From sequence record PQ843332.1: a stretch of DNA of 64,000 nucleotides; one strand, written 5' to 3'. Each line of letters opens with the position of its first letter. Within the stretch, counting starts at the first letter, position 1. Positions 1-61,430 of this stretch are shown piece by piece. This stretch comes from Escherichia phage P-GXEC-L2P5. Under the pieces are notes generated by a model. It saw only the letters and a list, made by a program, of their open reading frames with translations. It ran no database searches and was not told where the DNA came from. The translations under genes were made by a program, and so were the position numbers.

Positions 1-66
1 TTTAAAGATATCAAGCTAATGGAGCGAATCGCGCTTGATGAAATGGCGCAACAAAACCCCGCATAA
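1..66 (+). CDS. tail assembly chaperone, C-terminal end of the frameshifted gpT-like extension (partial; 5' end outside window)
   Basis: Frame 1 reads FKDIKLMERIALDEMAQQNPA-stop; the same peptide ends the T-frame extension after the G-like chaperone at 49363-49432. Confidence 0.5.
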   Translation, partial: FKDIKLMERIALDEMAQQNPA

Positions 67-604
67 TGAAGCGGGACAAGCGGGACGTCCCGTTTTGTCC
101 CGCCCCTCAAAAACTGCATACTTATTTACTATTATTGCATAAACTAAAAGCGGGACAAGCGGGACGTCCCGATCTGGCACCCCTCTGAAAAGCGCATACC
201 TATTCAGTTTTACTGCATAAACCAAACGGGACAAAAAGCGGGACAAACAAGGGGCGGGACAAAGCGGGACAGCACCCCCGCCCCGCCAGTGCTGCCGCGG
301 GGTTTAGCCGATCGGGACAGGCGGGACAAAGCCCAGTCTTTCAGACTAGACGGGGGTCAATGGCCCCCCTCGCGCGGTTTTTAGCCGATCGGGACAGGCG
401 GGACAAAGCCCAGTCTTTCAGACTAGACGGGGGTCAATGGCCCCCCTCGTCTGAGACTGAATAAGGTTTGTTTTAAATTCGCTGATACAATGTTTCAGAC
501 TAGACGGGGGTCAATGGCCCCCCTCGTCTGAGACTGAATAAGGTTTGTTTTAAATTCGCTGATACAATGTCAACCGGCAACTGCATAAAAAAGGGGGCTG
601 CATA
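67..604. repeat. non-coding repeat module R1: GCGGGACA(A) arrays in direct and inverted orientation, GC-rich tract, repeated strong hairpin, TGCATAAA boxes
   Basis: At least 10 GCGGGACA-type 8-mers; near-palindrome GCGGGACAAGCGGGAC/GTCCCGTTTTGTCCCGC at 70-102; no plausible ORF; paralogous modules at 31353-31610 and 49433-49893. Confidence 0.7.
411..459 (+). terminator. strong stem-loop (cagtctttcagactagacggggg...cccccctcgtctgagactg), terminator-like; also at about 334-371 and 487-535 through tandem duplication
   Basis: Long GC-rich inverted repeat seen directly; no clean U-tract, so terminator function is inferred only. Confidence 0.35.
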
Positions 605-3401: not shown

Positions 3402-3435
3402 TAAAATGGCCCTCACTACAACGTGGGGGCTTTTT

Positions 3436-4112
3436 ATGTCACAAGGTACAATCACACTAACGAAAGGAAGTAAGACCGTCACGGGCGCGGGAACGGCGTT
3501 CCTTAGCGAGATCGGGAAGGTACTCGTATTCGCCCGCATCGACGGCAACGACTACACCGGCAAAATTGCGGCATTCAACTCGAACACGGTCATTACTCTG
3601 AAAGATAACTGGGCCGGTCCGACGAAATCCGGTGCGGCATATGAGCTAATCGAAGCACACGACCCGCGATCAAACGAATGGCCCTATTACTGGCACCGAC
3701 GAAATCCGGTGCGGCATATGAGCTAATCGAAGCACACGACCCACGGTCAAACGAATGGCCCTATTACTGGCACATGCAATTGCAGGGCGGCGGCGACGTG
3801 CAGTTAGCTTTCCGGTCGGAGGAATTGCAATTCGGTAATGGCTACGGACAGAACATCGCGGACGGACCGAACGCAGAAACGAAACAGTTCCCCGTGCAAT
3901 TCGTCGGACTGACTACTGATAAGTGGTGCGACCCTAAACTGGTTTATAACTTTCTGCGCGGTCACTTCGTCAAGCCGTTTGTTGTCACCGCTCCAGATGG
4001 CGAAACAGGTTTATTCGTGGTCGAGCGTTCGAGCTTGTCGTACACTGACAACGGGCACTACACGGCAACTGTGTCCGCCACCCTTAAGACAGCTATTGGA
4101 TTCGTAAGATGA
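3436..4112 (+). CDS. minor tail protein, lambda gpM-like C-terminal domain (frame broken by duplication 3619-3772)
   Basis: ORFs 3379-3726 and 3678-4112; GGAGG-like RBS before ATG 3436; position between tape measure and gpL-like gene. Confidence 0.55.
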
Positions 4113-4897
4113 ATAAACTATATCGCGAGGCGACGCGCTTTGACCCATCGGGACGCGTTCGCCTGATTCACATTGACGCGCAGGACGTGGAGCCTGGCGA
4201 CGGCGCGATCGGCGCGGGCCATCACTATTTTCACTACTGCTTTATTCCGCACACTGCCGAGGATATTGCTGCCGCGGGCGGAGACGAGGACAAGCTAAAG
4301 CCCAAATCTATCTTCTTCGGCGGGCAGGAATTCGAATTCTGGCCCTTCGATTTGTCCGGCCTTAACTTCTCCACATCAACGGCAGCAGAACCGCAGCTAA
4401 CCATCGTTGATATTGGCGGCATAATCACCCGGCTGTCGCTGAATCACGACCAGCTACTGGGCGCGAAGGTTGAAATAATCGACACGTTTGCGAAGTTCCT
4501 GGATAACGGGTCGGATCCAGACCCGACGCAAAAACGTGTCCAGGAGTATTACATCGACTCACAGGTTGGGCGCAATCCAGGCAAGCAGATCACCTTCGCA
4601 TTATCCTCACCCGCGGATATGGAGGGGCAAGTAGTTCCCCGCCGCCAGATCATGAACATGTGCGAATGGGCGCTCAATGGGAAGTACGCCAGCGGGGACG
4701 GCTGCACGTGGAACCTTGCGAAGCCTGGCATCAAGTATTACGACGAGCGAGGTAATGAAGTCATCGCGATGAACATGGACCGATGCGGCGGCTGTTTGTC
4801 CGACTGTTATCTTCGATTTGGGCAAGGGCTTGCGGACCCTAAAGCGGCGGTGCTGGACTTCGGCGGCTTTCCGGGGTCCAGATTAATTAAGGGGTAG
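4109..4897 (+). CDS. minor tail protein, lambda gpL-like
   Basis: Intact 262 aa ORF; C-terminal Cys cluster CGGCLSDC; conserved position; ATGA overlap with upstream gene. Confidence 0.75.
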   Translation: MNKLYREATRFDPSGRVRLIHIDAQDVEPGDGAIGAGHHYFHYCFIPHTAEDIAAAGGDEDKLKPKSIFFGGQEFEFWPFDLSGLNFSTSTAAEPQLTIVDIGGIITRLSLNHDQLLGAKVEIIDTFAKFLDNGSDPDPTQKRVQEYYIDSQVGRNPGKQITFALSSPADMEGQVVPRRQIMNMCEWALNGKYASGDGCTWNLAKPGIKYYDERGNEVIAMNMDRCGGCLSDCYLRFGQGLADPKAAVLDFGGFPGSRLIKG

Positions 4898-4899
4898 TC

Positions 4900-5640
4900 A
4901 TGTTAACGAAGAAGGTTAAAAGCGATATCGCCGCACACGTCGCGGCATGTCTGCCGGAAGAAGCCTGCGGCCTGGTTGTCATGGTGGGCCGCAAACAAGT
5001 TTTTATCCCGTGCGTTAACGTATTCGAAGATCCTACCGGTGCGCGCTCGCGTAAGGACGCGTTTACAATCAGTGATACGGCCTGGATGGATGCTGAGGAT
5101 ATGGGCGATGTCGTTCGCGTAGTCCACTCACACCCAGGTCAGCGCGAGTTAACCCCGTCATTGGGTGACGTCAACGGCTGCAACGGCAGCGGCGTCGTCT
5201 GGACAATTACCAATGAGTATGGCGACTTTATCGAGATCGACCCGGAAGACCCGCCACTGGTGGGTCGCCGATTTGTTCTCGGAATTACGGATTGTTATGG
5301 CCTCGTTATGGACTGGCATAAAAAGCATGGCGTAAACCTGCCAGACTTCCGCGTACCGTACAACTGGTGGGAGACAGGCGAAAACCTGTATATGGACAAT
5401 TGGTATGGAGCGGGCTTCCGGGAGTGTGCGGAGAATACGCCAGGGGCGATGGTCATCATGCAGATTAGCGCGCCAGTGCCTAACCACGCCGGAATCTACC
5501 TTCCGGGCAACCAACTACTACACCATATCTACGGCAGCCTGTCGAGCGTGATCCCCTTCCGGGCAGGATTTTTCCGCGACAATGTGGTTAAATGGGTACG
5601 TCATAAAGACTTACCGTGGGATATCACAGAATGGCAATGA
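4900..5640 (+). CDS. tail assembly protein, lambda gpK-like (JAB/MPN + NlpC/P60 domains)
   Basis: Intact 246 aa ORF; HSHPGQRELTPSLGD (JAMM-like His motif) followed by Cys/His peptidase-like region; position after gpL-like gene. Confidence 0.8.
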   Translation: MLTKKVKSDIAAHVAACLPEEACGLVVMVGRKQVFIPCVNVFEDPTGARSRKDAFTISDTAWMDAEDMGDVVRVVHSHPGQRELTPSLGDVNGCNGSGVVWTITNEYGDFIEIDPEDPPLVGRRFVLGITDCYGLVMDWHKKHGVNLPDFRVPYNWWETGENLYMDNWYGAGFRECAENTPGAMVIMQISAPVPNHAGIYLPGNQLLHHIYGSLSSVIPFRAGFFRDNVVKWVRHKDLPWDITEWQ

Positions 5641-6248
5641 CCACATTTAAATTATACGGCGTCTTAGGGCGTCGTTTTGGTAAAGTGCACAAGCTGGATT
5701 GCTTCACCCCGGGCGAAGGTATCACAGGCCTATGCGTGAAGCTGCCTGGCTTACAGGACTTTCTAATGTCGGCCCACCTGGAAAATATTATGTTCAAGGT
5801 GCGCAAAGGCAATCACACAATGACCGGATACGACGAGTTAGGAGAGTTCCACGGCGACCGCGTAGTTACCATCGCACCGGTTATGACCGGCGCAAAACGC
5901 GGACTAGGCCAATTACTGGCGGGCGTAGCCATCGTGGTGGCGTCGTTCTACACCGGCGGGCTTGCTACTGCCGCTTTCGGAGCTTCCGCCGCGACCGCTG
6001 CCGCTATCGGTACGGCAACGTTTTCGTTCGGGATGTCGATGGCGCTGGGTGGCGTTATGCAATTGCTGTCACCGCAACCGAAAGGATTGCAGACACGGCA
6101 GGACGTGGATAACAAGGCGTCTTATGCGTTCGGCGGACCGGTAAACACGACCGCGCAAGGTACGGCACTTGGTGTATTATGGGGCGAGCGTGAGATCGGC
6201 GGCGCTATTATTTCCGCCGGAATCGTAACCGAGGACTTGAACGAATGA
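5631..6248 (+). CDS. tail assembly protein, lambda gpI-like
   Basis: ORF 5616-6248; N-terminal TFKLYGVLGRRFGK ubiquitin-like region, Gly/Ala-rich hydrophobic C-terminal half; overlaps gpK-like stop. Confidence 0.65.
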   Translation: MAMTTFKLYGVLGRRFGKVHKLDCFTPGEGITGLCVKLPGLQDFLMSAHLENIMFKVRKGNHTMTGYDELGEFHGDRVVTIAPVMTGAKRGLGQLLAGVAIVVASFYTGGLATAAFGASAATAAAIGTATFSFGMSMALGGVMQLLSPQPKGLQTRQDVDNKASYAFGGPVNTTAQGTALGVLWGEREIGGAIISAGIVTEDLNE

Positions 6249-6321
6249 CGATTATCTACGACGTCACAGGCCATAAAGGCGGCGGCGGCAAAGCCGGAAT
6301 CGTAACCGAGGACTTGAACGA

Positions 6322-9300
6322 ATGACGATTATCTACGACGTCACAGGCCATAAAGGCGGCGGCGGCAAACAGCACACCCCACAGGAGACGCCGGACAGCC
6401 TGCATTCGCTGGCTAAAATCCGCATCTTGCTCGCACTGGGCGAAGGTGAGTTCGAAGGCATTACCGACCCTAACGAATTACGGCAGCGCGTATACCTGGA
6501 CGGAACACCGATCCAGAACGCCGACCTGTCAGAAAACTTCCCCGGCGCGCGCGTGGAGTTCCGCCCAGGCACACAGCACCAGGACGTGATCCACGGATTT
6601 TCAGCGGTGGAAAGTGAGCAATCCGTAGGCGTAAAACTGGAAAACGGCACGCCGTGGGTGCGCCAGATTAACGACACCAGTCTTGACGCCGTGCGCATTC
6701 GAATCGGCATTCCGGCCCTGTACACCAACGAAGACAACGGCGACCTGGTGGGCGGGCGCATCGACTACAAAATCGTTGTGTATACGGACAACGCTGATCC
6801 GCGTGAGTTTACCTTCGCTGCCGTTGGTAAAACAATGTCGCTGTACGAGCGCGACCACCGCATCGAGTTACCGCCGAACGTGAATACCGGCTGGCGCGTG
6901 GAAGTTCACCGCACAACGGCAGATTCCACATCGGCGAAAGTGGTGAACGATATTCAGGTACAGTCCATCACTGAGATTATTGACGCCCGCCTGCGTTACC
7001 CGCTAACCGCGCTGTTGTTTGTGGAGTTCGACGCCAAAGCGTTCCAGAACATCCCGCGCGTGTCCATTAAGTGCAAAGGTCGCAAAGTTCTAATACCGAA
7101 CAACTACGACCCGATCAATCATACCTATGCCGGGTACTGGGACGGCACGTTTAAACGCGCATGGACGGATAACCCTGCGTGGCACTGGTACGATATTTGT
7201 ATTACTGAGCGCTTCGGCCTCGGTCGGTTAAACGCGCATGGACGGATAACCCTGCGTGGCACTGGTATGATATTTGTATTACTGAGCGCTTCGGCCTCGG
7301 TCGCCGGATCAAGCCGCAAATGCTAAACAGATATGCGCTCTACCAGATTGCGAAGCGCTGCGATCAACTGGTCAGCGACGGCAACGGCGGGCAGGAAATC
7401 CGATTTAAGAATGATATGTACATCCAGTCGCAGACCGACGCCTGGACCGTGCTTAAGGATTTAGCCGCCATCTTTGCCGGTATGACCTGGTGGGGCAACC
7501 AGATGTTGAATATTGTAAGCGATCAGCCGGTCGCAGCGGTATCGCACACTATCACCAACGCCTCGGTCATTGATGGTCGATTCGACTACGCGTCAGGGAG
7601 CCAGAAAACTCGGTATTCCACGTTCGCTGTAGCATACGGCAACCCGAAGAACCACTATGAAGATGCCATTGCTACGGGACAGCGTGTCGAACTGGTACGC
7701 CGCCATAAGATTAACCGTCTGGATATAACGGCGATCGGCTGTACGCGTGAGTCAGAAGCGCAACGCCGCGGGCACTGGGCGCTAATCTCCAACCAGCTTG
7801 ACCAGCAAGTTAGCTTTAAGGTTGGCATGGAGGGACTTTTCTTTATTCCGGGTAGTGTAGTCGCGATCGCCGATACAAACATTTCTGGCGGCTTCGAGAC
7901 ACGCGGCGGTCGCCTGTTGTCAGATCCTGGCACGCGGACTGTGCTGAACACAGACAGCGAAATCACGTTCCGCCCTGGGGATAAATTCCTGGTACGCACC
8001 GATAGCGGTAATGTGGAGACTCGCGAGATTGCCAGCGTCAACGGCAACAAGGTTACGCTAAAAACCGCACTGGACGCCGACCCGATTCCTGATCAGCCGT
8101 TTTGCGTCGATGGCAACGATATCCAGTTGCAGAAGTTCCGCATCACCGACCTGGAATATGACGACTCTACCAGCACTTTTTCAGTGCGCGGGATCGAATA
8201 CAACGATAGCAAATATGATGCCGTTGATAATGGCGCTCGCCTTGACCCAGGCATCTTTACGCAAGTTCCTGACGGCGTAATGAAGGGGCCGGAGTCCGTG
8301 ACCATTACCCCGTCGCAGATTTCATCGCAAGGCCAGCTAATCACCAACGTGGATATTGTGTTCCCGCCGGTGAAGGATGCCGTTGTTTATGAGATCCAGT
8401 GGCGACGTACCAGCTTGCAGAATATGGCGGTACAGTGGGGAAACGACTGGGTAAACATCCCCCGCACGGCATCGAACGGCGCGCACATCCCTAACGTGTT
8501 CTCCGGTAACTACCAAGCGCGCGTCCGCGCGATCGGTATGGGCGAGATTTCATCCCCGTGGGTGTCGTCCGCTATCACGCCGGTGGAAGGTCGTCTCGGC
8601 GGTCTTAACGCGCCTATCATCACCAACGCGATTTCGGGCCTTCACCAAATTTTGTGGAAGTGGAACCACAACAACGCCGCGACGGATATTTCGTACACCG
8701 AGCTTGAAGTTCGCAAGACGGGTGAAACGGAATGGAAATTCCTAACCAACGTCCCATACCCGGGGTCGGAGTATGCGCAAACGTCGCTGGAGTTCGGCAT
8801 CTATCAGCAGTTGCGCGCCCGTGTAGCGGATAAAATCGGCAACCTGTCGGACTGGTCGGCCCCGTTTGAAGGGCAGGTGAGCAGCAGTTGCGCGCCCGTG
8901 TCGCGGATAAAATCGGCAACCTGTCGGACTGGTCGGCCCCGTTTGAAGGGCAGGTGAGTGACAATGTTGACGAGTACATGAAGGGGCTGGACGACGAGTT
9001 CTTGACTTCTGAGGACGGTAAACGCTTCCAGGAAGCGATCGACACCATGCCGCAAGGCATTTATGAGGCTATGCTCACCGACGCACAGCAATTGTTTAAC
9101 GCCCGCGCCGAGTACAAGGGGATTTATGCAGAAATCTCGGTCGCGTATAACGTGGCGGCAGATGCCCACCAGGCGGTAGCGCAACTGGAAACGTTGATCG
9201 GTACTCGCCTTGACGATGCGGAAGCGGCAATCCACACGTTGCAGACCGCGCAAAGCACGCACGAGCAAGCGTTCGCCCAGTACCAACAAACTGTTGCCGC

Positions 9301-9826
9301 TAAGTTCGGTCAGCAGTCCGCCGCGATCGAGCAGAAGATGACGTCCTCGTTTAACCACTCCGGTGGTAGCGCCACATACAGCCTTAAGGCGGGTGTGACG
9401 TATAACGGTACTTACTATGATGCGGGTATGCAGCTTTCCGTTGTAACGTCGGGCAGCGCGGTTAAATCTCGTATCGCGTTCAAAGCCGACCAGTTCTACA
9501 TCATGCACCCATCTAATGGGTCGCTTTCGTCCGCGTTCATCGTCGACGGAGGACAGGTGTACATCGACACGGCACGAATCAAGAACGCGTCCATTAACTT
9601 CGCACAGATCACGGACACGCTGCGGTCTAATAACTTCGTTGCGGGGTCGTCAGGGTGGAACCTGCCTAAATCGGGTAACGCGGAATTGAACAACGTAACG
9701 GTCCGCGGCAACCTGTACGCCACATCGGGTAACTTCGGGTTTTCTGGTGGGACCGTGACGATCGACAAGACAGGCGTAAACGTGCCGTTACCTGGCGGGG
9801 GGAGGGTGAAAGTCGGGACGTGGTAA
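6322..9826 (+). CDS. host specificity / tail tip protein, lambda gpJ-like (frame broken by duplications near 7151-7304 and 8806-8959; start codon duplicated at 6245 and 6322)
   Basis: ORFs 6322-7326, 7320-8957 and 8888-9826 are contiguous, about 1,100 aa after removing duplicates; conserved gpJ-like N-terminus MTIIYDVTGHKGGGGKQHTP; position after gpI-like gene. Confidence 0.8.
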
Positions 9827-9831
9827 ATGCG

Positions 9832-9853
9832 AAGGGGCCATCCGGCCCCTTTT
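9832..9853 (+). terminator. rho-independent terminator (aaggggccatccggcccctttt), usable on both strands
   Basis: GC stem, short loop, T-run; sits between convergent genes. Confidence 0.6.
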
Positions 9854-10818
9854 CAATACATATTCGGGATGACGAGTAGCGGGGTGGGTACGGCAATATT
9901 TTTACCTGGCATCTGGAATTGCTGCCGTGAGTAGTTGCCGATGACGCGGTTTTTAGCGACGCGCACATTATTACCCGCCATGCGTATTCCGTTCATGCGG
10001 ACGTGGTTATAGCCCCCGTTGTTCTGAATCAGCGCGCCGGTGTATGAAAGCTGGATCAGGCTGTTTCCTATATTCTGGTCGCCCGTGCCGATGTTAATCG
10101 TGCGGTCATATACGAACGGCTTGTTCACCGTCGAGAACGTGACCTGATTCTGGTTATTTGTCATAGTGATCCCGGCCCCTGGCGTGGGTGGTGTATTGTT
10201 GAATATGACAAGGTCCATGTCCACCGAAGCCGCCACATCGTCGATGCCACCATAGGCCGCGTTGCGGACGATAATACTGCCACCATCGAAGCCTACTGAT
10301 ACGTTGCCGTCATCCCAGCGGGCGAACGGGACACCGCTAACGGGCAAGGCCATACTACCGTTGACGCGTACTCGCTGTGCGTATCGGCAGGTCATTAGCT
10401 TAGACACGTTGGATATGGCGGTGAAGTCCGTCGAGTTCTCCACCAGTAAGCCCGCGTTGCGTGAACCAACCGGCAGCACTTCCATTATGACGCCAGCCCA
10501 TTGTGGTAAGCCAGAGTACGCGCCATACGCATCCTCCCCGCGCAGGGTGATACCACTATTCCCGTTGCGGGTAACAGACGTAACGTAAAACGGGTCGGGA
10601 ATTACCAGGGTCTGGTCGAATACCTCAATCACTTCTACCGGGCGAGTGAGCGCGACGACGACCTGCGACCCCTCCGTAAGCGGGGTGTTAATGGTTAGCG
10701 TCTTGTTGGACTGTGCCCGCTGGTTAAAGCTGGTGCAGTATGCTGGCGCGCGAAGCCCTGCGGTGATCTCCATGCGCGGTCTTCCGTCGTTGTAGTCGAT
10801 AAGTATTCCAGCACCCAT
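9853..10818 (-). CDS. hypothetical protein, Asn/Gly-rich with beta-helix-like repeats; co-transcribed with upstream lipoprotein
   Basis: Intact 324 aa ORF; start overlaps lipoprotein stop; repeated N-x-x-(V/I)-x-N segments; absent from second genome copy. Confidence 0.45.
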   Translation of the reverse strand: MGAGILIDYNDGRPRMEITAGLRAPAYCTSFNQRAQSNKTLTINTPLTEGSQVVVALTRPVEVIEVFDQTLVIPDPFYVTSVTRNGNSGITLRGEDAYGAYSGLPQWAGVIMEVLPVGSRNAGLLVENSTDFTAISNVSKLMTCRYAQRVRVNGSMALPVSGVPFARWDDGNVSVGFDGGSIIVRNAAYGGIDDVAASVDMDLVIFNNTPPTPGAGITMTNNQNQVTFSTVNKPFVYDRTINIGTGDQNIGNSLIQLSYTGALIQNNGGYNHVRMNGIRMAGNNVRVAKNRVIGNYSRQQFQMPGKNIAVPTPLLVIPNMY

Positions 10819-10820
10819 TA

Positions 10821-11042
10821 TTACCACTCCCGTGATTTAACTGATACTGTGCCTGAGAAATTGCCGTCGCTATCTGAAGACAGCCCAGTGAATCGCATGT
10901 CCACATCTCCTGCCGGGACTTTTTGCCCATCAACGTAGCGCAACATGCAGCTACCGTACGCAACCGTAATGCACTCGCCGTTGTTGCGTTCTACGGCGCA
11001 ACCGGATAAAAGAACCGCACAAATCATAATTAAAGTTTTCAT
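10821..11042 (-). CDS. small lipoprotein, candidate Llp/Cor-like superinfection exclusion protein
   Basis: Signal peptide MKTLIMICAVLLSGC with lipobox LSGC; AGGGGA RBS; lies between gpJ-like gene and tail fibre; mature part differs completely from paralogue at 61449-61667. Confidence 0.5.
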   Translation of the reverse strand: MKTLIMICAVLLSGCAVERNNGECITVAYGSCMLRYVDGQKVPAGDVDMRFTGLSSDSDGNFSGTVSVKSREW

Positions 11043-11122
11043 GGTATCATCCCCTATATTTGGTTGAGTTTTAGTATTACACCGCTCAACCAGGATTGCA
11101 ACCAATTTAAGAGGATTTAGCT

Positions 11123-12901
11123 ATGGCAGCGGGTACGCTATCCGTAACGAACAATAGCAAGGCTGTAGTAGGGGTCGGCACAACGTTTACCGCGTTTAAA
11201 GCGGGCGACTTCTTAACGCTGGTGGTAGGACAAGTCCCATACACCGTGGCAATCGCGTCCATTGAAAGCGCAACCGCGCTCACGCTGGTACTGCCGTTCG
11301 ACGGCCCAACGGCAACCGGCCTTGCGTGGGATGGCGTTAAGCGCGATACCATGTCGCTGGCAACGATGGGCGTTACCGTACAGGCCCAAAAAGCATTGCG
11401 CTTGATGATTGCAGATGAAAACAACTGGCGTGCAATCTTCGGCGATGCTGAAGAAATCACAGTCACGCTCCCGAACGGGCAAGTTATGCAGGGTATGTCG
11501 TGGGGCTACCTGTCGTCTTTGCTGAAGGAAGTAGACCCCGTTGAGATGCGCAACCTGCAACAACAAGCCGCCGCATCGGAAGCAGCCGCGCAAGGATTCC
11601 GTAACGAGGCGGAAGGCTTCAAGAACGACGCCAACACCATCAAGACGCAGACCAGCCAACTTAAGGCAGATACGCAGGCTATCAAGGACCAAACGAATCA
11701 GATCAAGACTGACACTGGCGTTATTCGTGATGAAGCCAATACCGCGAAGGAGGACGCGCAATCTGCCCGCACTGCCGCGCAAGGATTTCGCAATGAGGCT
11801 GAACAATTCGCTAATAGTGTTAACCCGGAAAACCTACTTGCGAAGGCCAACAACTTAAGTGATGTTGCGGATGTGGCTGTGGCGCGCGAAAACATTGGCG
11901 TAGACCGCCTAACGCAAAACATAACCAGCGGCGAAACACAAATCAGGACTGCGGCGAAGAATAAATGGATCTTCGTTAAGGAAAATGGCGACTGGGGCGG
12001 GTGGGATAATGCCAACAATAAAGCCATGCCGCTGCCGATTGCATTCGGTGGTACGGGGCGCGGCGATAACGTCGCCGAGTTCCGCCAATTCAAATCAAAC
12101 GGCGACACCCAAGATGGGTTAATCATTACGCAGAACGGGTCTGGATTTGGTGGTGTATGCTGGGGGGATTCCGCCAATAAAGTACGCTGGCGCATGGGGA
12201 TTAACGACGCCGCGGGTAATTTTAAGTTGCACTCATATGACGCGTCGGGCGCGTACCGCGATACCTTTATGGAGATCTCTGGATCGGGGATAAGCGGCAT
12301 GGTGTGTCATCGAGATATCATGGTCCGCCCAACAGAGACAGTTCCAGTGTTGTCTTTCGTCCTAAACAACGGAAAAGCTACCGTCCCGGCTGGTAACGTC
12401 CGCACGATGTGGGATACGGTTAACATCAATAGTAATATAATCTATAAATATTTTGAGAAGGGAGACGGCACTGGCTTCACAGTCAACTGGCCCTCATCTG
12501 GTGGTGTTATTGCCCTCCAGGGTACATCAGGAAGGGACTTTAAGAAAGATATTACCGACGCGGACGTTACAGAAGCGGTTGCACGCATTGAACAAATGCG
12601 CATGGTGCGCTACGTGTATAAGGACGATGTGCAGGAGCGCGTCCGCTTCGGCATCATTGCCGAGGAAGCAGAAGAGATTGCGCCTCAATACATCAAACAC
12701 CGTGAGGAGACGTACGATGTGGAGGTGGACCCCGAGACTAACGCCATCGTCGGGGGTAAGACGCGCGACCGTCCGTCGGTAGACGTTAACCCTATCGTGA
12801 TGGACTTGATGGGGTGCGCACAATATGCGATCGCTGAGTGTAAACGCCTGGCGGCGGAAGTGGAGGATTTGAAAGCCGAGATCGCGGCGTTGAAGAAATA
12901 A
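11123..12901 (+). CDS. tail fibre protein with C-terminal intramolecular chaperone (peptidase S74-like) domain
   Basis: Intact 592 aa ORF; coiled repeat region; C-terminal ...RFGIIAEEAEEIAPQYIK...DLKAEIAALKK resembles the auto-cleaving chaperone domain of endosialidase and L-shaped tail fibres. Confidence 0.7.
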   Translation: MAAGTLSVTNNSKAVVGVGTTFTAFKAGDFLTLVVGQVPYTVAIASIESATALTLVLPFDGPTATGLAWDGVKRDTMSLATMGVTVQAQKALRLMIADENNWRAIFGDAEEITVTLPNGQVMQGMSWGYLSSLLKEVDPVEMRNLQQQAAASEAAAQGFRNEAEGFKNDANTIKTQTSQLKADTQAIKDQTNQIKTDTGVIRDEANTAKEDAQSARTAAQGFRNEAEQFANSVNPENLLAKANNLSDVADVAVARENIGVDRLTQNITSGETQIRTAAKNKWIFVKENGDWGGWDNANNKAMPLPIAFGGTGRGDNVAEFRQFKSNGDTQDGLIITQNGSGFGGVCWGDSANKVRWRMGINDAAGNFKLHSYDASGAYRDTFMEISGSGISGMVCHRDIMVRPTETVPVLSFVLNNGKATVPAGNVRTMWDTVNINSNIIYKYFEKGDGTGFTVNWPSSGGVIALQGTSGRDFKKDITDADVTEAVARIEQMRMVRYVYKDDVQERVRFGIIAEEAEEIAPQYIKHREETYDVEVDPETNAIVGGKTRDRPSVDVNPIVMDLMGCAQYAIAECKRLAAEVEDLKAEIAALKK

Positions 12902-12905
12902 ATAG

Positions 12906-12930
12906 AAGGGGCCATGCGGCCCCTTTTTTA
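12906..12930 (+). terminator. rho-independent terminator (aaggggccatgcggcccctttttta), bidirectional
   Basis: Perfect GC stem plus T-run between convergent genes. Confidence 0.65.
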
Positions 12931-13580
12931 GTTTGAGTTTTCCCAGTCCATTTTGCGCCGCACCAGATGGCTTTCGTAATATTCCTTGCCCTCAACTTCC
13001 ACTAAGGGCCAATCGTTAACAATCACGTACGGTTCCGCAATATCCTCAATCACGCCGTGCGCGCTTTGCGGCCCTAACGACACGCCCACCAGGATAACAC
13101 CGGCAACACGACGGGCAAGATACTCACGAGCGCAGCGCGCCTCTACCAGTCCGCGACGGATGCCGCTGGTGGCCTTAACTTCGTAGGTCCATACGGCATC
13201 GATCACATGCTCGCGGAAGTCGGGACCGGACTTCACCTTGCGCTTGCCGACCATGATGATATCGCCGCGACGGCATCGATCACATGCTCGCGGAAGTCGG
13301 GACCGGACTTCACCTTGCGCTTGCCGACCATGATGATATCGCCGCGGTCAATGGTATTGGCGCTAAACAGGCCGGTACGCATGAGCAAGCCTTGAGGAAT
13401 ACAACTGCGCCCTCCTGCCTGCCCTTCAAGATACATGCCTGCAAACATCTCGCCCAGCACACCGACCAGTCGGCTTTGCTTGCACGCGTCAGACTTTAAG
13501 CGCCACTGGTCAAACTCGATGCTTGCTATCATTGCCGCCAGGTGGAATTGTTTACCGGATATTTCATATTCGCCGTACAT
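12928..13580 (-). CDS. hypothetical protein, possible PD-(D/E)xK-type nuclease fold (frame broken by duplication near 13195-13345)
   Basis: ORFs 13233-13580 and 12928-13254 are contiguous; GDII...YEVK resembles D...(E)xK; homologue at 63627-64000. Confidence 0.3.
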
Positions 13581-13622: not shown

Positions 13623-14297
13623 TTATTTCAGTGCGCCAGTCACCAGTGTTTTTTCCATGTTGCGGAAATCTTCCGGCGTCATGAGGATTTTCGATCCGTC
13701 CTCGCCAGTGAGCACGACCATAGGCTGGACGTCCTGATCTGCGATGCCAAAATTAGCGGCTTTAACAGTCTTGCCCACAGATGAAGAAGGATGCCGCGTC
13801 CCGGCGGAGGCGATGGGCCGGCCTTTGAGGCTGTCGAATTGTGCTGCCGTTGTATCGATCTGAATCTCGTCATGTACGGTCATGTAAGACTCGCCCAGCA
13901 GGGCGGCATACCGAATTGTGCTGCCGTTGTATCGATCTGAATCTCGTCATGTACGGTCATGTAAGACTCGCCCAGCAGGGCGGCATACGCCACCAGATCC
14001 ACGATGTTATCTTCCTGGTGCTTACGGTGCTGGCGCACCAGCTTCAGGCAGATCAGGAAGGTCCAGGCTTCTTGCTCTGTAAGTTATCTTCCTGGTGCTT
14101 ACGGTGCTGGCGCACCAGCTTCAGGCAGATCAGGAAGGTCCAGGCTTCTTGCTCGGACAGGTCGCGACCGGTAATCGCGTTAAACACGGCCGCGATTTGT
14201 TTAGCGCTGCGTTCTTCTTTCGCGTTGTCATAGCCGTTTTCTTTCCCGCGCTGTTCCATAGTGGTGGCGGCGTTTTTGCAGTATTCGTATGCTTTCA
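13623..14297 (-). CDS. hypothetical protein (frame broken by duplications near 13835-13985 and 14005-14158)
   Basis: Removing the duplicated units joins ORFs 14053-14340 and 13623-13883 into one ~175 aa frame; GTG start with AAGGG RBS near 14297. Confidence 0.35.
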
Positions 14298-14348
14298 CAG
14301 TATTACCCTTTTTAGTGAAGGGGCGGTATTGCCCCGACACGTTTACTA

Positions 14349-14370
14349 TAGTGCAACCAACCTATTGGTT
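14349..14370. promoter_or_regulatory. perfect palindrome TGCAACCAA-TAGG-TTGGTTGCA (operator or intercistronic hairpin)
   Basis: 9-bp perfect inverted repeat seen directly; overlaps the stop codon of the HAD-like gene; same TTGGTTGCA core recurs in other intergenic regions. Confidence 0.5.
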
Positions 14371-14909
14371 GCAAGTGAATTTTGCAACGTTTATTGCGTA
14401 AATTTTCGGGACCAAATCACCACACGCCCGACGAATTGCCGCGATGTTCTTCTCGCAATCTTCAATGATGACCAGTTCAGACACGTCCGCGTAGCAGACC
14501 ATTTTGAACACGGCGCACGCTTTAAACTCAGGCGGCGTTCAATGATGACCAGTTCAGACACGTCCGCGTAGCAGACCATTTTGAACACGGCGCACGCCTT
14601 AAACTCTGGCGGCGGGGTGTCGTCCAGCATGTGGCGCATAAACAACCGGCCTACGGGGAAGACCTCCAATTGCTCGGCGGTGGTGTCCCAGCATTCTCGC
14701 TGCCGGTTGGTCAGATATGCGATCTCGAAGCCTTGCTCTTTATACATGCGCAGTAGCGGCAGCATATCCATGTTCAGGTCTTCGCGGACGTGCGCCTTGT
14801 GCCACTTCGCCCAAAAGGTGGATTTAGTTTTTATCCCCGGCACCAGGTCGGCGCGCGCATCGCTTGATCCATTAATAACGCCATCCAGGTCACAAATCAG
14901 TAATTTCAT
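14356..14909 (-). CDS. HAD-superfamily phosphatase (polynucleotide 3'-phosphatase / nucleotidase-like); frame broken by duplication near 14460-14615, start duplicated near 14853-15005
   Basis: N-terminal MKLLICDLDGVI (HAD motif I DxDG), downstream YLTNR and Lys motifs; GAGGAA RBS. Confidence 0.55.
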
Positions 14910-16297: not shown

Positions 16298-16326
16298 TTA
16301 AAAAGGGCGTCCAAACCGGACACCCT
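16298..16326 (-). terminator. rho-independent terminator on minus strand (gggtgtccggtttggacgccc + ttttta)
   Basis: Stem-loop followed by T-run when read on the minus strand. Confidence 0.5.
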
Positions 16327-16328
16327 CA

Positions 16329-16361
16329 ATATAATGCAACCAATCTAATTATGCAACCAAT
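16329..16361 (-). promoter_or_regulatory. two direct copies of ATTGGTTGCA (minus-strand orientation) upstream of gene 15816-16280
   Basis: TGCAACCAAT at 16335-16344 and 16352-16361 on plus strand; same motif in at least five other intergenic sites. Confidence 0.45.
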
Positions 16362-19449: not shown

Positions 19450-19623
19450 TTATTTTTGTTCTGCACGGTAGCGGCGCTGCCGTTCGCGCTCTTTCTTATT
19501 GCGGCACGATTTGCACTCTGCCCGATACCCGTCTGGACTGCGCGCAGTCTTACCGGTGTATTTGTGGAACTGGGATAGCGGCTTTACACAGCCGCAATTA
19601 CTACAACGTTTTTCTTCAATCAT
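19450..19623 (-). CDS. small zinc-ribbon protein (CxxC...CxxC), hypothetical
   Basis: MIEEKRCSNCG...ECKSCRNKKERERQRR; GAGGA RBS before ATG 19623. Confidence 0.4.
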   Translation of the reverse strand: MIEEKRCSNCGCVKPLSQFHKYTGKTARSPDGYRAECKSCRNKKERERQRRYRAEQK

Positions 19624-23963: not shown

Positions 23964-23978
23964 TTTTCATTGTCCTGT

Positions 23979-24002
23979 TAAAAAGCCCGCATTAAGCGGG
24001 CT
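23979..24002 (-). terminator. rho-independent terminator on minus strand (aagcccgc-ttaat-gcgggctt + ttttta); the unit is triplicated to about 24215
   Basis: Perfect 8-bp stem seen directly; T-run on minus strand. Confidence 0.55.
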
Positions 24003-24175
24003 TGAATAGTGGGCTTTGCCCTTAACGGCGGCGACGGTTACGTGGTGCTTCGTCTTAAAAAGCCCGCATTAAGCGGGCTTGAATAGTGGGCTTTGCCCTT
24101 AACGGCGGCGACGTTTACGTGGTGCTTCGTCTTCGTCGTCGTCCATTAAGCGGGCTTGAATAGTGGGCTTTGCCC

Positions 24176-24850
24176 TTAACGGCGGCGACGTTTACGTGGC
24201 GCTTCGTCTTCGTCGTCGTCTTCGTCATCGTCATCACGACGTTTTGACTTTTTGGACTTACGCGGGCTTTCATCTTCGTCATCGTCGCCCAGGTCTTCGT
24301 CGGAACATGAAGACCCGCCACCGCCGAAGGCTTCGCCGTCATCACGGAAGCGCATACCCAGCAGACCACAGCCTAAGCCTTTGCCGTTGGTATTGTTCCA
24401 GGCCCAAATATCTAAGGAAACGTTGCAATAGCAACCGGAATAGATTTCCTTCCCTTCGATTTCGTCGCCGTCGATGGTCAGACCCTGCTCCGTCTGCTTC
24501 TCGCCTTCGGAAGTCTGGATGATCGGCTGTTTGAACGATTTGGCGTTGATGTACAACATGCCTTCGAATTCTTCGGTTACTTCGTCGCGCTCGTCACCGT
24601 CGCGAACTGCGCATTCCTTAGAATCCTGGGCGTAGTGGCGGTCCATCCACTTATCGGCATTCTTCTCGGATTTCAGCTTGTCGGTGAGCACTGCGCGCGC
24701 TGCCGCTTCCACTTTGTCCACCTGCGGATCTTCTTTATCAAGAAGAATCACGGCGCGGTATGCCGGTTTTTGTCCATCCTGTTTAGGGGTATCACGTTCC
24801 CAAATTTTAAGGAAACATACACGCACATTTTTCAGGTTGACTTTAGCCAT
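24176..24850 (-). CDS. single-stranded DNA-binding protein candidate, DUF2815-like with acidic C-terminal tail
   Basis: MAKVNLKNVRVCFLKIWE...IYSGCYCNVSLDIWAWN...GKGLGCGLLGMRFRDDGEAFGG followed by D/E-rich tail; GAGGAA RBS; C-terminus affected by the triplicated unit. Confidence 0.5.
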   Translation of the reverse strand: MAKVNLKNVRVCFLKIWERDTPKQDGQKPAYRAVILLDKEDPQVDKVEAAARAVLTDKLKSEKNADKWMDRHYAQDSKECAVRDGDERDEVTEEFEGMLYINAKSFKQPIIQTSEGEKQTEQGLTIDGDEIEGKEIYSGCYCNVSLDIWAWNNTNGKGLGCGLLGMRFRDDGEAFGGGGSSCSDEDLGDDDEDESPRKSKKSKRRDDDDEDDDEDEAPRKRRRR

Positions 24851-25017
24851 TTTCCAATTCCTCATTTTCACATGTATCGGGGTTATTGGAAGCCACCCCG
24901 TTCGGCTTGGTTGCTAATTTACTCCATTTTCCAATTCCTCATTTTCACATGTATCGGGGTTATTGGAAGCCACCCCGTTCGGCTTGGTTGCTAATTTACT
25001 TGGTTGCGCCTGAGCGG

Positions 25018-27445: not shown

Positions 27446-28040
27446 TTAATCTTCCAGTTCGAAATAAGTTTCGACGATTTCTTTTAGCTCTTTGTGGAAG
27501 TCTTCGACGTCGTCATCTTCCAGCTTAGCGATTGATTTGATCTCGAACGATTCCAGAAGGTCGTCGAATTCGTCGTTCGCATCGTCGTCATCGCCACCGG
27601 CGATAATCGCGGCATACTGTTTGATTTCGTCGCGCATCTCCGCCAGCGGATCGGCATCTTTCTTACCTTTGCCTTTCGCCGGTGCTTTCTTAGACTTAGC
27701 CGGTTTTTCGTCTTCGGCATCGGCATCGTCGTCGTCATCTTCTACGACTTCTTTTTTGGCCTTACCTTTCGCCGGTGCTTTTTTGGTTTTCGCCGGTGCT
27801 TCGTCTTCAGCGTCGTCATCTTCTACGACTTCTTTTTTTTACCTTTCGCCGGTGCTTTTTTGGTTTTCGCCGGGGCTTCGTCTTCAGCGTCGTCATCTTC
27901 TACGACTTCTTTTTTGGCCTTAGACGGCTTCTTGTCTTCCTGTTTACCAACGGCAGCGCCAACGGTTTCATAATGCTTAGCGATGATTTCCAGTGCTACT
28001 ACGCCGCGAGTGATCAGGTTTACGATTTGCTCAAACATGG
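27446..28040 (-). CDS. highly acidic protein with Lys-rich repeats (frame broken by duplication near 27740-27880)
   Basis: MFEQIVNLITRGVVALEIIAKHYE... then repeated AKKEVVEDDD / PAKTKKAPAKGKK blocks and a D/E-rich C-terminus; GGAGA RBS; first gene of the minus-strand operon. Confidence 0.45.
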
Positions 28041-28065: not shown

Positions 28066-28516
28066 GTGTCGACCATTAACTTCGTCGGTGGCCTTAACAT
28101 AGTGCCAGGTTACGCGTTCTCCCTTTCGGGTAGTGGACCTGGTTATATAATCACGGTTGGGAATCCTGACACTTCGATCCGGCCCCTGCGTTGCCCCTCT
28201 CCAGTTTGCGTCCTGCATCCTGTCGACGAGGTGAATATTAGATTGGTTGCAGAAGGGAGTCAACAACTAATTTCAAAAAAAAAGCGCCGAAGCAAAATGC
28301 GACGGCGCTAACCAATAAGAGACAATGAGACGGGAGTATTATTACACGCGTGCGCGCCCGTTTCAATATTCCAAAGGAGTTGACACCACCAATAAGAGAC
28401 AATGAGACGGGAGTATTATTACACGCGTGCGCGCCCGTTTCAATATCCCAAAGGAGTTGACACCCTGCGGTTTTAGGTGTAGTTTCATTGGTCATTAACC
28501 AACCGGAGACAGAATA
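28066..28516. promoter_or_regulatory. divergent intergenic control region between minus-strand replication operon and plus-strand regulator/primase operon
   Basis: About 450 bp without a convincing ORF; TTGACA (28453-28458), 17-bp spacer, TAGTTT upstream of ATG 28517; AGATTGGTTGCA at 28240-28251; minus-strand hairpin plus T9 at about 28272-28305; internal 77-bp duplication. Confidence 0.5.
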
Positions 28517-28846
28517 ATGAATATCAACGACGCAATCGAAATGCTAACGAAGACTGTCTGCAGTGAGACTAGCCGGTCCTGGGCGTATACCGATGCCGTG
28601 GGGGCGGTGCTATTTGAAATCGAACGTCTGCGACTTACCGAAAAAGAATTGCGCGCCAGGCTGGAATTACTCAACGGTACGGCAGCCAGCAAGCTGCAAA
28701 AGCACAATGAAGAAATGGAAGAATACAAAAAACAGGTTATCCGTCTACGTGAGGAAGGTAAATCCTGGGCTATGATCGCCGAGCTAACCGGAATCAACCA
28801 GAGCACCGTGCGCTCCTGGGTACGCAATAATAAAACTTCGAAGTAA
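28517..28846 (+). CDS. HTH DNA-binding protein, putative transcriptional regulator
   Basis: 109 aa; C-terminal GKSWAMIAELTGINQSTVRSWVRNN helix-turn-helix; coiled-coil middle. Confidence 0.5.
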   Translation: MNINDAIEMLTKTVCSETSRSWAYTDAVGAVLFEIERLRLTEKELRARLELLNGTAASKLQKHNEEMEEYKKQVIRLREEGKSWAMIAELTGINQSTVRSWVRNNKTSK

Positions 28847-31352: not shown

Positions 31353-31610
31353 ATCCTATTTTGAGTGTTTTTAGCTGGTCGCATTGGTTGCCGTGCAGTA
31401 TAAATATAGTGAATAGTTATGCAATAAAACTGCATAAAGTAAGCGGGACAAAAAGCGGGACAAACTTGGGGCGGGACAAAGCGGGACAGCACCCCCGTCC
31501 CGCCCCGGATGACGCGGCCTGGAGAGGAGCGGGACAGGCGGGACAACTCCCAGTCTTTCAGACTAGACGGGGGTCAGCGGCCCCCCTCGTCTGAGACTGC
31601 ATAAAATCCG
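31353..31610. repeat. non-coding repeat module R2, paralogue of R1
   Basis: aagcgggacaaaaagcgggacaaacttggggcgggacaaagcgggacagcacccccgtcccgcc is nearly identical to R1 226-290; same hairpin at about 31553-31607. Confidence 0.7.
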
Positions 31611-31753
31611 GGATTGCAAAATACACGGCAGCACATTGGAAATCGCGGTCGTCGATGAACTGGGCAACCAATGCGAGTTGCAGAATGTGGTGTGAAAAAT
31701 GCAGTTTGCAGTCACAGCTGATAGCGATCAACTTTTTCATGCGCATGATTAAT

Positions 31754-31794
31754 ATTGGTTGCATTCATGCCAGCACCCTGCTAGATTGGTTGCA
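31754..31794 (+). promoter_or_regulatory. two copies of ATTGGTTGCA upstream of gene 31816
   Basis: ATTGGTTGCA at 31754-31763 and AGATTGGTTGCACACCAACA at 31783-31802; identical extended 17-mer upstream of minus-strand gene start 43131. Confidence 0.45.
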
Positions 31795-31815
31795 CACCAA
31801 CATGAGGGCTGAACA

Positions 31816-32151: not shown

Positions 32152-32421
32152 ATGACCCGTAGACGCGCAAAACAGCTTTCGTGGCATATCCCCCTGCATT
32201 GCATACGAATATGGGCTAAGAATGCGAATGCGGGGGACTCTGTGTACTGGTGCTATCGCGACGACGTTAAGCCGTTGACGCAGACTCGCTACTTGCACCA
32301 GTTCGCCGCGCAACATGATTTCTATGTGCGGACCTCCTTGCAACCAATGGGGATCCGTATTACATTACGCCGGAAGCCCGCAGTCGAGCGGGTAGGCAAA
32401 CACTGGAGACTGAGCAAATGA
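32152..32421 (+). CDS. hypothetical protein
   Basis: 89 aa intact ORF, tightly spaced. Confidence 0.35.
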   Translation: MTRRRAKQLSWHIPLHCIRIWAKNANAGDSVYWCYRDDVKPLTQTRYLHQFAAQHDFYVRTSLQPMGIRITLRRKPAVERVGKHWRLSK

Positions 32422-33887: not shown

Positions 33888-34129
33888 TTATCTCCGTCCT
33901 GTTGTTTGTTATCATCGGGGCTTCGTCCCTGTTTAACGTGTATGCGCCGTCCGTCCGGGATGGCATTTTCGGTCGGGTGCTGTATCTGTTAACGGCAATG
34001 GTCTGTATTATCGGATTGTTGCAAACAGGAGACGTATCGGATACCACCTGGACCGCGTTAATCTGGCTGTTTGCATTGCGCACCCTGCGTAATGCTGTTT
34101 TAAATGGGGTAAAACATGCGATTCAGTGA
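33884..34129 (+). CDS. membrane protein, holin/antiholin candidate
   Basis: 81 aa, 2-3 hydrophobic segments; stop overlaps endolysin start. Confidence 0.4.
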   Translation: MIISVLLFVIIGASSLFNVYAPSVRDGIFGRVLYLLTAMVCIIGLLQTGDVSDTTWTALIWLFALRTLRNAVLNGVKHAIQ

Positions 34130-34192
34130 TAACGGTCTTCTGGCTGTTTGCATTGCGCACCCTGCGTAATGCTGTTTTGAATGGGGTAAAAC

Positions 34193-35136: not shown

Positions 35137-35172
35137 TGACTTGCAACCAACATAGACTCTATACTGCGACCA
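35137..35172 (+). promoter_or_regulatory. sigma70-like promoter TTGACT - 18 bp - TATACT; spacer contains TGCAACCAA
   Basis: Hexamers read directly from sequence; located after terminator. Confidence 0.45.
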
Positions 35173-35336
35173 ATCAACGAGAGGAGTAATCAAGATGGCA
35201 CGTAAAGATATTTGGGTATTAGCGATCTGGACCACCACGGCTTTTATCGACATGGTTATTTGCGAATTGATATAGCCCGCCGCCATACGGACCGTGGTAT
35301 ATTGTCCGCGGTCCACTAATCAGGAATTAATTAAAT

Positions 35337-43131: not shown

Positions 43132-43348
43132 TTTGTCTTCCTTCATATCTCTGTTGGTGTGCAACCAATTCCAGCAGCGCAAGCGAATTTTGCGATTATT
43201 TTTATCACTGATAATATTAAGGCGTGAAGTCAAGCGGGTGGCCCGCTTTGCCACAATCAGCGAATTTTGCGATTATTTTTATCGCTGATAATATTAAGGC
43301 GTGAAGTCAAGCGGGTGGCCCGCTTTGCCACAATCCCAGGGGGATAGC

Positions 43349-61429: not shown

Positions 61430-61430
61430 A

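Follow-up and report, generated by a model that had tools for sequence, protein, structure and literature searches.

The stretch of DNA analysed here, referred to as the window, comprises 64,000 nucleotides of Escherichia phage P-GXEC-L2P5 (sequence record PQ843332.1), and at 14352-14373 it carries a perfect 9+9 bp inverted repeat with a 4-nt gap. The element reads TGCAACCAA-TAGG-TTGGTTGCA on the minus strand and TGCAACCAA CCTA TTGGTTGCA on the + strand. An initial annotation of the window had correctly described the perfect 9-bp palindrome and its TAGG loop but had placed them at 14349-14370, 3 nt off the true position. Its statement that the element overlaps the stop codon of a HAD-like phosphatase gene agrees with what we find, as the TAG of the loop is that stop and the minus-strand translation of 14362-14538, which ends ...NVAKFTCNQ*, is an exact match to the C-terminus of gp28 of Sodalis phage SO-1. 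Against Pfam, the phosphatase gives a sub-threshold HAD IIIB match of 23.6 bits (cut-off 27). Its frame is broken in the window by a 77-bp duplication (14461-14537 / 14538-14614), and because this duplication shifts the frame, the program-made list of open reading frames ends the phosphatase at 14391. The next gene, which encodes a DUF6378 protein homologous to SO-1 gp27, begins with a GTG 53 nt downstream, close to the ~50 nt given earlier; a ribosome-binding site (RBS) and conservation support this start, with relatives carrying ATG or GTG there followed by the same codons. The SO-1 annotation starts gp27 at a later ATG (window 14259) rather than at GTG 14298.

Between 12000 and 17000 the window is 99.3% identical to SO-1 (genus Dhillonvirus, HK578-like siphophages) and 80-95% identical to ~165 further Dhillonvirus records, and by sequence it is a Dhillonvirus (HK578/SO-1-like coliphage). 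Dhillonviruses are common coliphages; the BASEL collection includes them, and they serve in work on anti-phage defence and phage engineering. At 64 kb the window is larger than a single genome (~45 kb): 1-13378 and 49366-64000 are the same region twice, in versions that are ~90% identical. Alignment to SO-1 divides the window into consecutive blocks whose SO-1 coordinates overlap by ~77 bp at the ends, and the window therefore contains dozens of imperfect 77-bp tandem duplications, which look like overlaps left in by mixed-strain assembly. These duplications break many reading frames in the window and affect the gene calls near the palindrome. The Dhillonvirus genomes are all closely related (~80-99% identity), so that conservation of the palindrome alone is weak evidence. 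The features discussed below are collected in Table 1.

Table 1. Features at the palindrome, further copies of its 9-bp word and genes for candidate binding proteins, in window coordinates.
Feature	Position	Strand	Remarks
Motif copy 1, TGCAACCAA	14365..14373	-	Last phosphatase codons (C-N-Q); the preceding T plus copy 1 forms the -35 hexamer
4-nt spacer TAGG	14361..14364	-	TAG at 14362-14364 is the phosphatase stop codon (SO-1 gp28 homologue)
Motif copy 2, TGCAACCAA on +, TTGGTTGCA on minus	14352..14360	+	1 nt from the -10 hexamer
HAD-type phosphatase gene (SO-1 gp28 homologue)	14362..14909	-	Interrupted by artefact-like 77-bp duplication 14538-14614
-35-like hexamer TTGCAA	14369..14374	-	From promoter scan
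-10-like hexamer TATAGT, 18-bp spacer	14345..14350	-	Relatives: TATATT, TACATT or TATCTT
Leader hairpin GGGGC-AATACC-GCCCC	14320..14335	-	Conserved; stem lengthened by matched insertions in relatives
RBS AAGGG (14306-14310) and GTG start (14298-14296), DUF6378 gene (SO-1 gp27 homologue)	14296..14310	-	
One copy	11097..11105	+	17 nt upstream of tail-fibre gene start
Two direct copies, 17 bp apart	16335..16360	+	On minus-strand promoter TTGCAT-17-TATATT, gp31/gp30 junction
Variant copies TGCGACCAA, AGCAACCAA	19667..19687	+	On minus-strand TTGCTG-17-TATAGT, upstream of gp35 homologue
Copies CGCAACCAA, AGCAACCAA	24984..25008	-	TTGACC-17-TAAATT: one in spacer, one just past -10; upstream of SSB-like gene
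One copy	28243..28251	-	In spacer of strong leftward early promoter TTGACT-17-TAATAT
Copies at 31384(-), 31663(+), 31755(-), 31786(-)	31384..31794		Region after primase-helicase gene (SO-1 'region B')
One copy inside small gene (SO-1 gp51 homologue)	32339..32347	+	
Two copies	35142..35173	+	TTGACT-18-TATACT: one right after -35, one overlapping last -10 base
TTGGTGTGCAACCAA, copy plus partial inverted partner	43154..43168	+	RusA/scaffold intergenic region
Candidate binder 1, 57-aa CxxC...CxxC zinc-ribbon protein with basic C-terminal helix (SO-1 gp35 homologue)	19450..19623	-	
Candidate binder 2, 109-aa protein with C-terminal HTH (SO-1 gp47 homologue)	28517..28846	+	

The window contains 55 short-range inverted pairs of at least 9 nt, and a 9-bp inverted repeat alone is thus not unusual. 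The non-random part of the element is the word TGCAACCAA, not the inverted repeat as such. The word occurs in 12 exact copies in the window where 0.62 are expected, a count reached in 0 of 100 shuffles, and exact copies number 10-14 in each of 8 complete Dhillonvirus genomes. It ranks among the most frequent 9-mers of SO-1, where 9 of the 12 exact copies fall in the intergenic 6.5% of the genome (P = 4e-9). The core of the word can be written (T/G)GCAACCAA(T/C), and in seven intergenic alignments of five to eight genomes each, 88% of the motif columns are invariant compared with 76% of the other intergenic columns (P = 0.007). The copies have the properties of a regulon-type family of sites: they are over-represented, are concentrated in non-coding DNA near promoters, and are kept at orthologous junctions. 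The palindrome had been singled out as the only perfect inverted form of a recurrent motif, and in the window exact copies of the 9-mer do face each other here only; partial core dyads of the form TTGGT-N5-ACCAA occur at 28488, 31786 and 43154 (3 against 0.05 expected). Neither the word nor the promoters of Dhillonvirus or eiAU are described in the searchable literature.

A scan of the minus strand for promoters returned TTGCAA-18-TATAGT at 14374..14345 with 9/12 matches, a position at which one arm of the palindrome supplies the -35 hexamer and the other abuts the -10 hexamer with 1 nt between them. Between them, the two copies thus take up the -35 hexamer and almost all of the 18-bp spacer of a predicted internal minus-strand promoter. 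The layout is that of a sigma70-type promoter, with a -35/-10-like pair spaced within the 16-18 bp range, facing the gene, and the RBS and GTG ~40-50 nt downstream. With a -35 that matches at only 4/6 positions and an 18-bp spacer, the promoter may be weak. Between it and the RBS lies a leader hairpin, in which we detected no formal covariation. The operon is otherwise tightly packed, and its long intergenic gaps coincide with units of motif, promoter and hairpin. A + strand antisense promoter at the palindromic ACTATAGT was considered and rejected, as it has no usable -35 by inspection and is absent from the promoter scan.

Elsewhere in these genomes the word is likewise found on promoter-like sequence. 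In SO-1, 17 of 21 GCAACCAA sites overlap promoter-like hexamer pairs, which cover 5% of the genome, although the -35-like TTGCA within the word makes this statistic partly circular. The copies lie on the -35, within the spacer, abutting the -10 or just past the -10, and in both orientations. The strong leftward early promoter has the near-consensus form TTGACA-N7-TGCAACCAA-TC-TATCAT, the promoter upstream of the SSB-like gene the form TTGACC-N7-CGCAACCAA-G-TAAATT-GGCAACCAA, a promoter that follows a terminator the form TTGACT-TGCAACCAA-N9-TATACT-GCGACCAAT, and one inside the leftward operon the form TTGGTTGCA-N8-TTGGTTGCA-T-TATATT. In the window, the copy at 24907-24915 is a duplicate created by the 77-bp stitching, and that at 11097 has a counterpart at 61722-61730 in the second, diverged genome copy.

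Conservation in relatives had been proposed as a check on the palindrome. With a 48-nt probe covered over at least 80% of its length, we found the inverted form in 144 of ~152 Dhillonvirus records. A probe for an alternative form reached at least 80% coverage in 12 records, but at least one of these, Kenya-K19 (81% identity), in fact has a variant of the inverted repeat. In Bas84, TH13, slur05 and JLBYU60 the locus reads TGCAACCAA-TAA-TGCAACCAA followed by the -10, the second arm being reversed to give a direct repeat with a period of 12. LM40P1 has a different upstream gene, yet carries TTGGTTGCA-N8-TTGGTTGCA-C-TATATT, a direct repeat with a 17-bp period. ST-T-K and Kenya-K19 have a 3-nt gap and TTGGTCGCA, an uncompensated change, and the reverse complement of TTGGTCGCA, TGCGACCAA, serves at other window sites (19667, 35165). 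Zar3M has TGCAGCCAA-TAAA-TTGGTTGCA, and in Gluttony the 4-nt gap is inverted, with loss of the stop codon. Every alternative arrangement that we compared retains two copies of the word beside the -10.

Judged from these sequences, the stem, the loop and even the stop codon are dispensable in relatives. That the exceptions keep two copies but break the hairpin argues for selection on the DNA word and not on an RNA stem or a DNA hairpin. Because relatives vary both the gap (4 or 3 nt) and the period of the direct repeats (12 or 17 bp), the copies are better described as two separately maintained sites than as an obligate dyad, and the constant inverted spacing of a fixed-dyad dimeric operator is not seen among relatives at the locus. 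Of the dimeric operator suggested in the initial annotation, the operator is the best supported part, its arms being the promoter-associated word on the -35 and the spacer; the obligate dyad for a rigid dimer is not borne out.

The word extends beyond Dhillonvirus. Edwardsiella phage eiAU-183 (genus Eiauvirus), whose proteins are ~35-70% identical to those of SO-1, contains TGCAACCAA 14 times and GCAACCAA 23 times; these are its top 9-mers and its top non-coding word. The eiAU-183 copies occupy orthologous junctions: they precede the SSB-like gene and the scaffold gene, lie at the gp36/gp35 junction, and form clusters behind the primase-helicase gene and ahead of the tape-measure gene. In four lineages of intermediate relatedness found through their gp47/gp35 homologues (L167, L169, L171 and L185; primase-helicase 66-68% identical), GCAACCAA is a top 8-mer, and in L169 and L171 it is the single top 8-mer. 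Two copies fill the spacer of an early promoter in these four, TTGAC-GCAACCAA-C-GCAACCAAT-C-TAGTAT. More remote relatives that share the gene order and whose primase-helicase is 37-45% identical do not have the word, and one such motif-less relative carries a related repeat, ACAGCCAACA, after its primase-helicase gene. A scan of IMG/VR for two nearby copies returned mostly unrelated tandem or coding repeats, and L126 was the only informative case. In this far relative (65% GC), TTGGTTGCAc forms 10-bp tandems around an A-rich stretch with no promoter around, directly following a primase-VapE gene whose product shares its N-terminal primase domain with gp48 (E = 4e-7). The presence of the word without a promoter in L126 favours a protein-binding site over a promoter element.

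We consider it somewhat better than an even chance (about 55%) that the two copies at the palindrome are operators for a putative phage DNA-binding protein that would occlude an internal promoter of the gp27-gp26 genes, within a regulon of ~20 sites that times early/middle transcription. What the sequences show is a motif that is enriched, lies on promoter-like sequence, is conserved and is free in its orientation; that the promoter is active, that the copies are bound by a protein, that such binding is repressive and that the protein is the gp35-like or the gp47-like candidate, we infer. The predicted minus-strand promoter overlaps the 3' end of the phosphatase gene and would drive the DUF6378 gene and the gp26 homologue, its transcript passing through the conserved leader hairpin and the RBS into the DUF6378 gene. 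Occupation of the copies by a phage-encoded sequence-specific protein would block RNA polymerase, and such blocking could provide timed shut-off or feedback at the palindrome promoter and at the other marked promoters. Since the copies vary in where they lie and which way they face relative to the hexamers, steric repression is a better fit than activation.

An unlikely alternative is that the word is a lineage-specific core-promoter or spacer element for host RNA polymerase, acting alone or with a phage co-factor in the manner of the T4 MotA box, in which case the palindrome would be one copy at the -35 and another flanking the -10. The TTGCA of the word does supply a -35-like hexamer at several promoters (TTGCAA, TTGCAT, TTGCTG), TTGGTTGCA-N-TATAnT recurs at at least 4 junctions, and the 17-bp spacing of pairs matches the distance from -35 to -10. 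However, the word also lies in the spacer or past the -10 of promoters that have a near-consensus TTGACA, TTGACC or TTGACT of their own, it can flip in place, and its distance to the -10 varies, unlike that of an activator box. Nor would such an element be expected in the promoter-less tandems of the distant phage or in the clusters after the primase-helicase gene.

In a second, quite unlikely alternative, the copies are iteron-like sites for a replication initiator (the primase-helicase or a partner) and the locus is a secondary initiator-loading or replication-coupled site. In SO-1, eiAU and L126 the word does form clusters just behind the primase-helicase or primase gene, in the arrangement of origin iterons; SO-1 has 5 such copies, which flank GCGGGACA repeats, and eiAU ~12. 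The C-terminal segment of gp48 also resembles a winged helix. At 14352-14373, by contrast, there is neither an AT-rich unwinding region nor a repeat cluster, just two copies on a promoter, and most Dhillonvirus copies are at promoters spread through the early region. SO-1 and eiAU have the word in common but not the presumed recognition segment of gp48, and as the winged-helix-like C-terminus does not track the word we rejected it as the binder. Relatives whose primase-helicase is 43-45% identical to that of SO-1, close to the 47% of eiAU, also lack the word.

An intercistronic RNA hairpin affecting transcript stability or translational coupling had been proposed from the sequence. Such a hairpin, which would act in a read-through operon transcript on mRNA stability, on processing or on translation termination or coupling at the phosphatase stop, now appears very improbable. 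The stem of 9 bp is perfect, has a stop codon in its loop, would be present on the transcribed strand and is retained in ~144/152 records. Its predicted fold of -11.7 kcal/mol is nevertheless of moderate and unexceptional stability (z = -1.8; 13/200 shuffles fold equally well), and relatives that keep two copies show a direct repeat in place of the stem, an altered loop length or a loop whose inversion eliminates the stop; where the arms are not invariant they change without compensation, which is not the pattern of a structured RNA. A scan of 13800-14900 against Rfam gave no match up to E = 1. An intrinsic terminator is ruled out, as no U-tract follows the stem on the gene (minus) strand, where CTATAGTAAACG is found instead; a terminator scan flags the stem only on the antisense + strand, with 4 GC pairs. 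Elsewhere the word occurs singly or as a direct repeat, in both orientations relative to transcription.

It is very unlikely that a phage nuclease or methyltransferase targets the palindrome (the phage encodes HNH endonucleases, Dam and Dcm) or that the palindrome arose by chance: the genome does have HNH genes, the zinc-ribbon module of gp35 is fused to HNH nucleases in other proteins and gene insertions adjoin the element in TH13 and LM40P1, but the word contains neither GATC nor CCWGG, shows no strand bias and is concentrated on promoters rather than at insertion borders, and chance is excluded by the 20-fold enrichment and the conservation across genera.

If the copies are operators for a phage protein, two small proteins are the candidates. 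Among the small non-structural proteins of the sampled regions, the zinc-ribbon protein gp35 alone occurs in every motif-bearing lineage and in none of the motif-less ones, a pattern that reflects one clade and so gives the link between gp35 and the motif no statistical weight. Its own promoter bears two copies of the motif. An exhaustive profile search identified the gp35 module as a widespread zinc ribbon (Pfam Stc1-like) that is often found in tandem and is sometimes fused to HNH nucleases, an occurrence compatible with nucleic-acid binding. A structure model of gp35 (pLDDT 76) gave only non-significant zinc-finger matches when compared with the PDB. As a putative binder, gp35 is only a lead. 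No small proteins common to L126 and either SO-1 or eiAU were found.

The second candidate, gp47, has a C-terminal HTH that Pfam matches to HTH_23, HTH_28 and a sigma70-region-4-like HTH, and no other small protein that we scanned has an HTH that Pfam recognises above its curated cut-off. Its gene is positioned at the divergent early promoter hub, with a motif copy in its leader in L167, L169, L171 and L185 and a related dyad, TTGGT-N5-ACCAA, in SO-1 and the window. Homologues of gp47 are confined to motif-bearing phages. Against this candidate, eiAU has the motif but no gp47, its slot being occupied by a Cro/C1-type HTH protein, and that Cro-type protein is also found in motif-less relatives. 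A third protein, gp46, was rejected, as it is conserved in relatives without the word and gives no PDB or Pfam signal. On the host side, we know of no site among those for CytR, PdhR/GntR-type regulators, sigma54, IHF, DnaA, Ter and the MerR family that fits the word.

The most far-reaching version of the operator reading, which we regard as unlikely, would make a gp35-family protein, whose module is otherwise known from tandem arrays and from fusions with HNH homing endonucleases, the global reader of (T/G)GCAACCAA in Dhillonvirus, Eiauvirus and sister lineages. Such a protein would bind as a monomer in any orientation and use the word both at the presumed replication origin beside the primase-helicase gene and at early/middle promoters, coupling replication to transcriptional shut-off.

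The proposed operators resemble those of lambda OR/OL (CI, Cro) and of P22 Arc/Mnt in that short repeated sites lie on the -35, the spacer and the -10 and in that several promoters share one word. The candidate regulator genes also bear copies on their own promoters, as would be expected for autoregulation. In contrast to the lambda and P22 cases, the phage is virulent, no CI/Cro pair can be recognised in Dhillonvirus, and the 9-10 bp units occur singly or as direct or inverted repeats with varying gaps rather than as a fixed 17-bp dyad. Direct repeats by the primase-helicase gene, combined with a promoter-borne inverted repeat, bring to mind the iteron/operator duality of P1 RepA, F RepE and pPS10 RepA, of P4 alpha with ori/crr and of SaPI Rep with its iterons 3' of rep. 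Here, however, most copies are on the promoters of unrelated early genes, and the main repeat of the presumed SO-1 origin is a different word, GCGGGACA. MerR-type operators likewise have a dyad between the -35 and the -10, but the spacer here is 18 bp (19-20 bp for MerR) and the dyad is off-centre, overlaps the -35 and has a symmetry that is dispensable in relatives; no MerR-family protein was found among the scanned phage proteins.

The element is an ordinary kind of control element, and the word itself appears undescribed. By sequence the element belongs neither with the known promoter-overlapping phage operators nor with the iteron systems. To our knowledge the Dhillonvirus transcription programme is uncharted, and the searchable literature yielded no data on transcription starts, binding or expression for any Dhillonvirus. 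The analysis yields a defined word, a map of ~20 marked promoters per genome and two named candidate regulators, which offer a direct handle to anyone wishing to map transcription start sites, construct phage-responsive reporters or give inserted genes the native timing. It also cautions against annotating such palindromes as terminators or RNA elements.

The arrangement also has a likeness to the PeSL (promoter-early stem-loop) cassettes reportedly described in T4-type phages by Arbiol et al. in 2010, which are likewise repeated units of a promoter and a downstream stem-loop at gene boundaries. The two have no sequence relation, and the conserved unit here is a 9-mer at variable promoter positions and not a whole cassette. 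In TH13, copies of the leader hairpin lie on both sides of an additional gene, and this one insertion suggests, but only suggests, recombination at promoter-hairpin cassettes.

The core of the recurrent 9-mer motif has a second, head-to-head arrangement, TTGGT-N5-ACCAA, and three such dyads are found in the window against 0.05 expected. One of them lies within the leader of the gene for gp47, the 109-aa HTH protein that is a candidate binder of the motif, and shows full conservation across eight genomes. In the palindrome of phage Gluttony (KX534336.1, 939-1065), the central 4 nt are inverted and read CCTA in the gene direction, with the result that the phosphatase stop codon is lost; the annotated phosphatase ORF of this phage continues into the next gene region.

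The 'region A' and 'region B' annotated in Sodalis phage SO-1, a Dhillonvirus, are made up of GCGGGACA repeats, some direct and some inverted. In region B these repeats are flanked on both sides by inverted copies of GGCAACCAATGCG, and the repeat region bracketed in this way may be the replication origin. Positions 6250-6700 of a distant phage of 65% GC (L126) hold 10-bp tandems of TTGGTTGCAc that surround an A-rich stretch, and the array is placed between a primase-VapE gene and a gene for an SNF2-type helicase. This locus has the textbook look of an iteron origin, one built on the same 9-mer as the motif of the window.

The leader hairpin GGGGC-AATACC-GCCCC (window 14320-14335) is conserved, with a stem that in relatives has grown longer through matched insertions; formal covariation was not found. 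Phage TH13 (L005, 24918-25470) carries an extra gene, inserted downstream of the promoter, with one copy of the leader hairpin and ribosome-binding site on each side, an arrangement suggestive of cassette-mediated gene shuffling. At the motif-bearing promoter TTGCAT-17-TATATT, a hairpin that resembles a terminator and carries a T-run, GGGTGTCC-GGTT-TGGACGCCC-TTTTT, begins only a few nucleotides past the -10 element. RNA initiated at this promoter would not include the hairpin's 5' arm, whereas read-through transcripts would be terminated at the hairpin.

The other candidate binder of the motif, gp35, goes under the annotation 'Lar-like' or 'kilA anti-repressor' in some records. It comprises one copy of a zinc-ribbon module, named Stc1 in Pfam. 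At E <= 0.001 the module is present in 2,422 proteins; tandem arrays of 2-9 copies are common, and an HNH nuclease domain sometimes accompanies it.

Mapping of the whole window on SO-1 resolves it into chained blocks, the ends of which overlap by ~77 bp in SO-1 coordinates and leave imperfect 77-bp tandem duplications in the window. Many ORFs, among them those of the phosphatase, gp27, gp26 and the primase-helicase, are disrupted by these duplications, which look like unremoved assembly-graph overlaps and not biology. Because the window is longer than one genome length, carries the tail-gene region twice (1-13378 and 49366-64000, ~90% identity between copies) and falls from ~99% identity to SO-1 at 493-24900 to ~85-94% elsewhere, the sequence indicates that several Dhillonvirus strains were joined in a chimeric or concatenated assembly.

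Coordinates of repeats, dyads, hairpin and gp35 gene
Feature	Genome	Coordinates	Strand or orientation	Proteins
77-bp tandem duplication	window	14461-14537 / 14538-14614		
77-bp duplication, further example regions	window	13835-14154, 23978-24220, 27657-27915, 34062-34388, 39222-39557		
GCGGGACA repeats	window	71-171, 31468-31506, 49446-49540	both	
GCGGGACA repeats	SO-1 (L001)	40282-40396	both	
TTGGT-N5-ACCAA dyads	window	28488-28502, 31786-31800, 43154-43168		
Terminator-like hairpin	window	~16300-16334	minus	
gp35, 57 aa	window	19450-19623	minus	P0028-P0176
TGCAAGC(A/G)-N-TTT-N-AAAATATTTT	distant relative L033	9336-10001		
TGCAAGC(A/G)-N-TTT-N-AAAATATTTT	distant relative L038	9517-10001		
TGCAAGC(A/G)-N-TTT-N-AAAATATTTT	distant relative L042	5635-5760		

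The octamer ACGGCA[AG]C is present in 53 copies in the SO-1 genome, where a uniform model gives an expectation of ~3. Of these copies, 39 lie on gene sense strands and 11 are antisense, and all three reading frames are represented. Its octamers also rank first or nearly so among the 8-mers listed for distant relatives (L033-L042), and it is a polar word, co-oriented with transcription or replication. Distant relatives have a conserved stretch, TGCAAGC(A/G)-N-TTT-N-AAAATATTTT, within their divergent early promoter region, and a stretch resembling it is seen in SO-1 upstream of the scaffold gene (~5655-5700).
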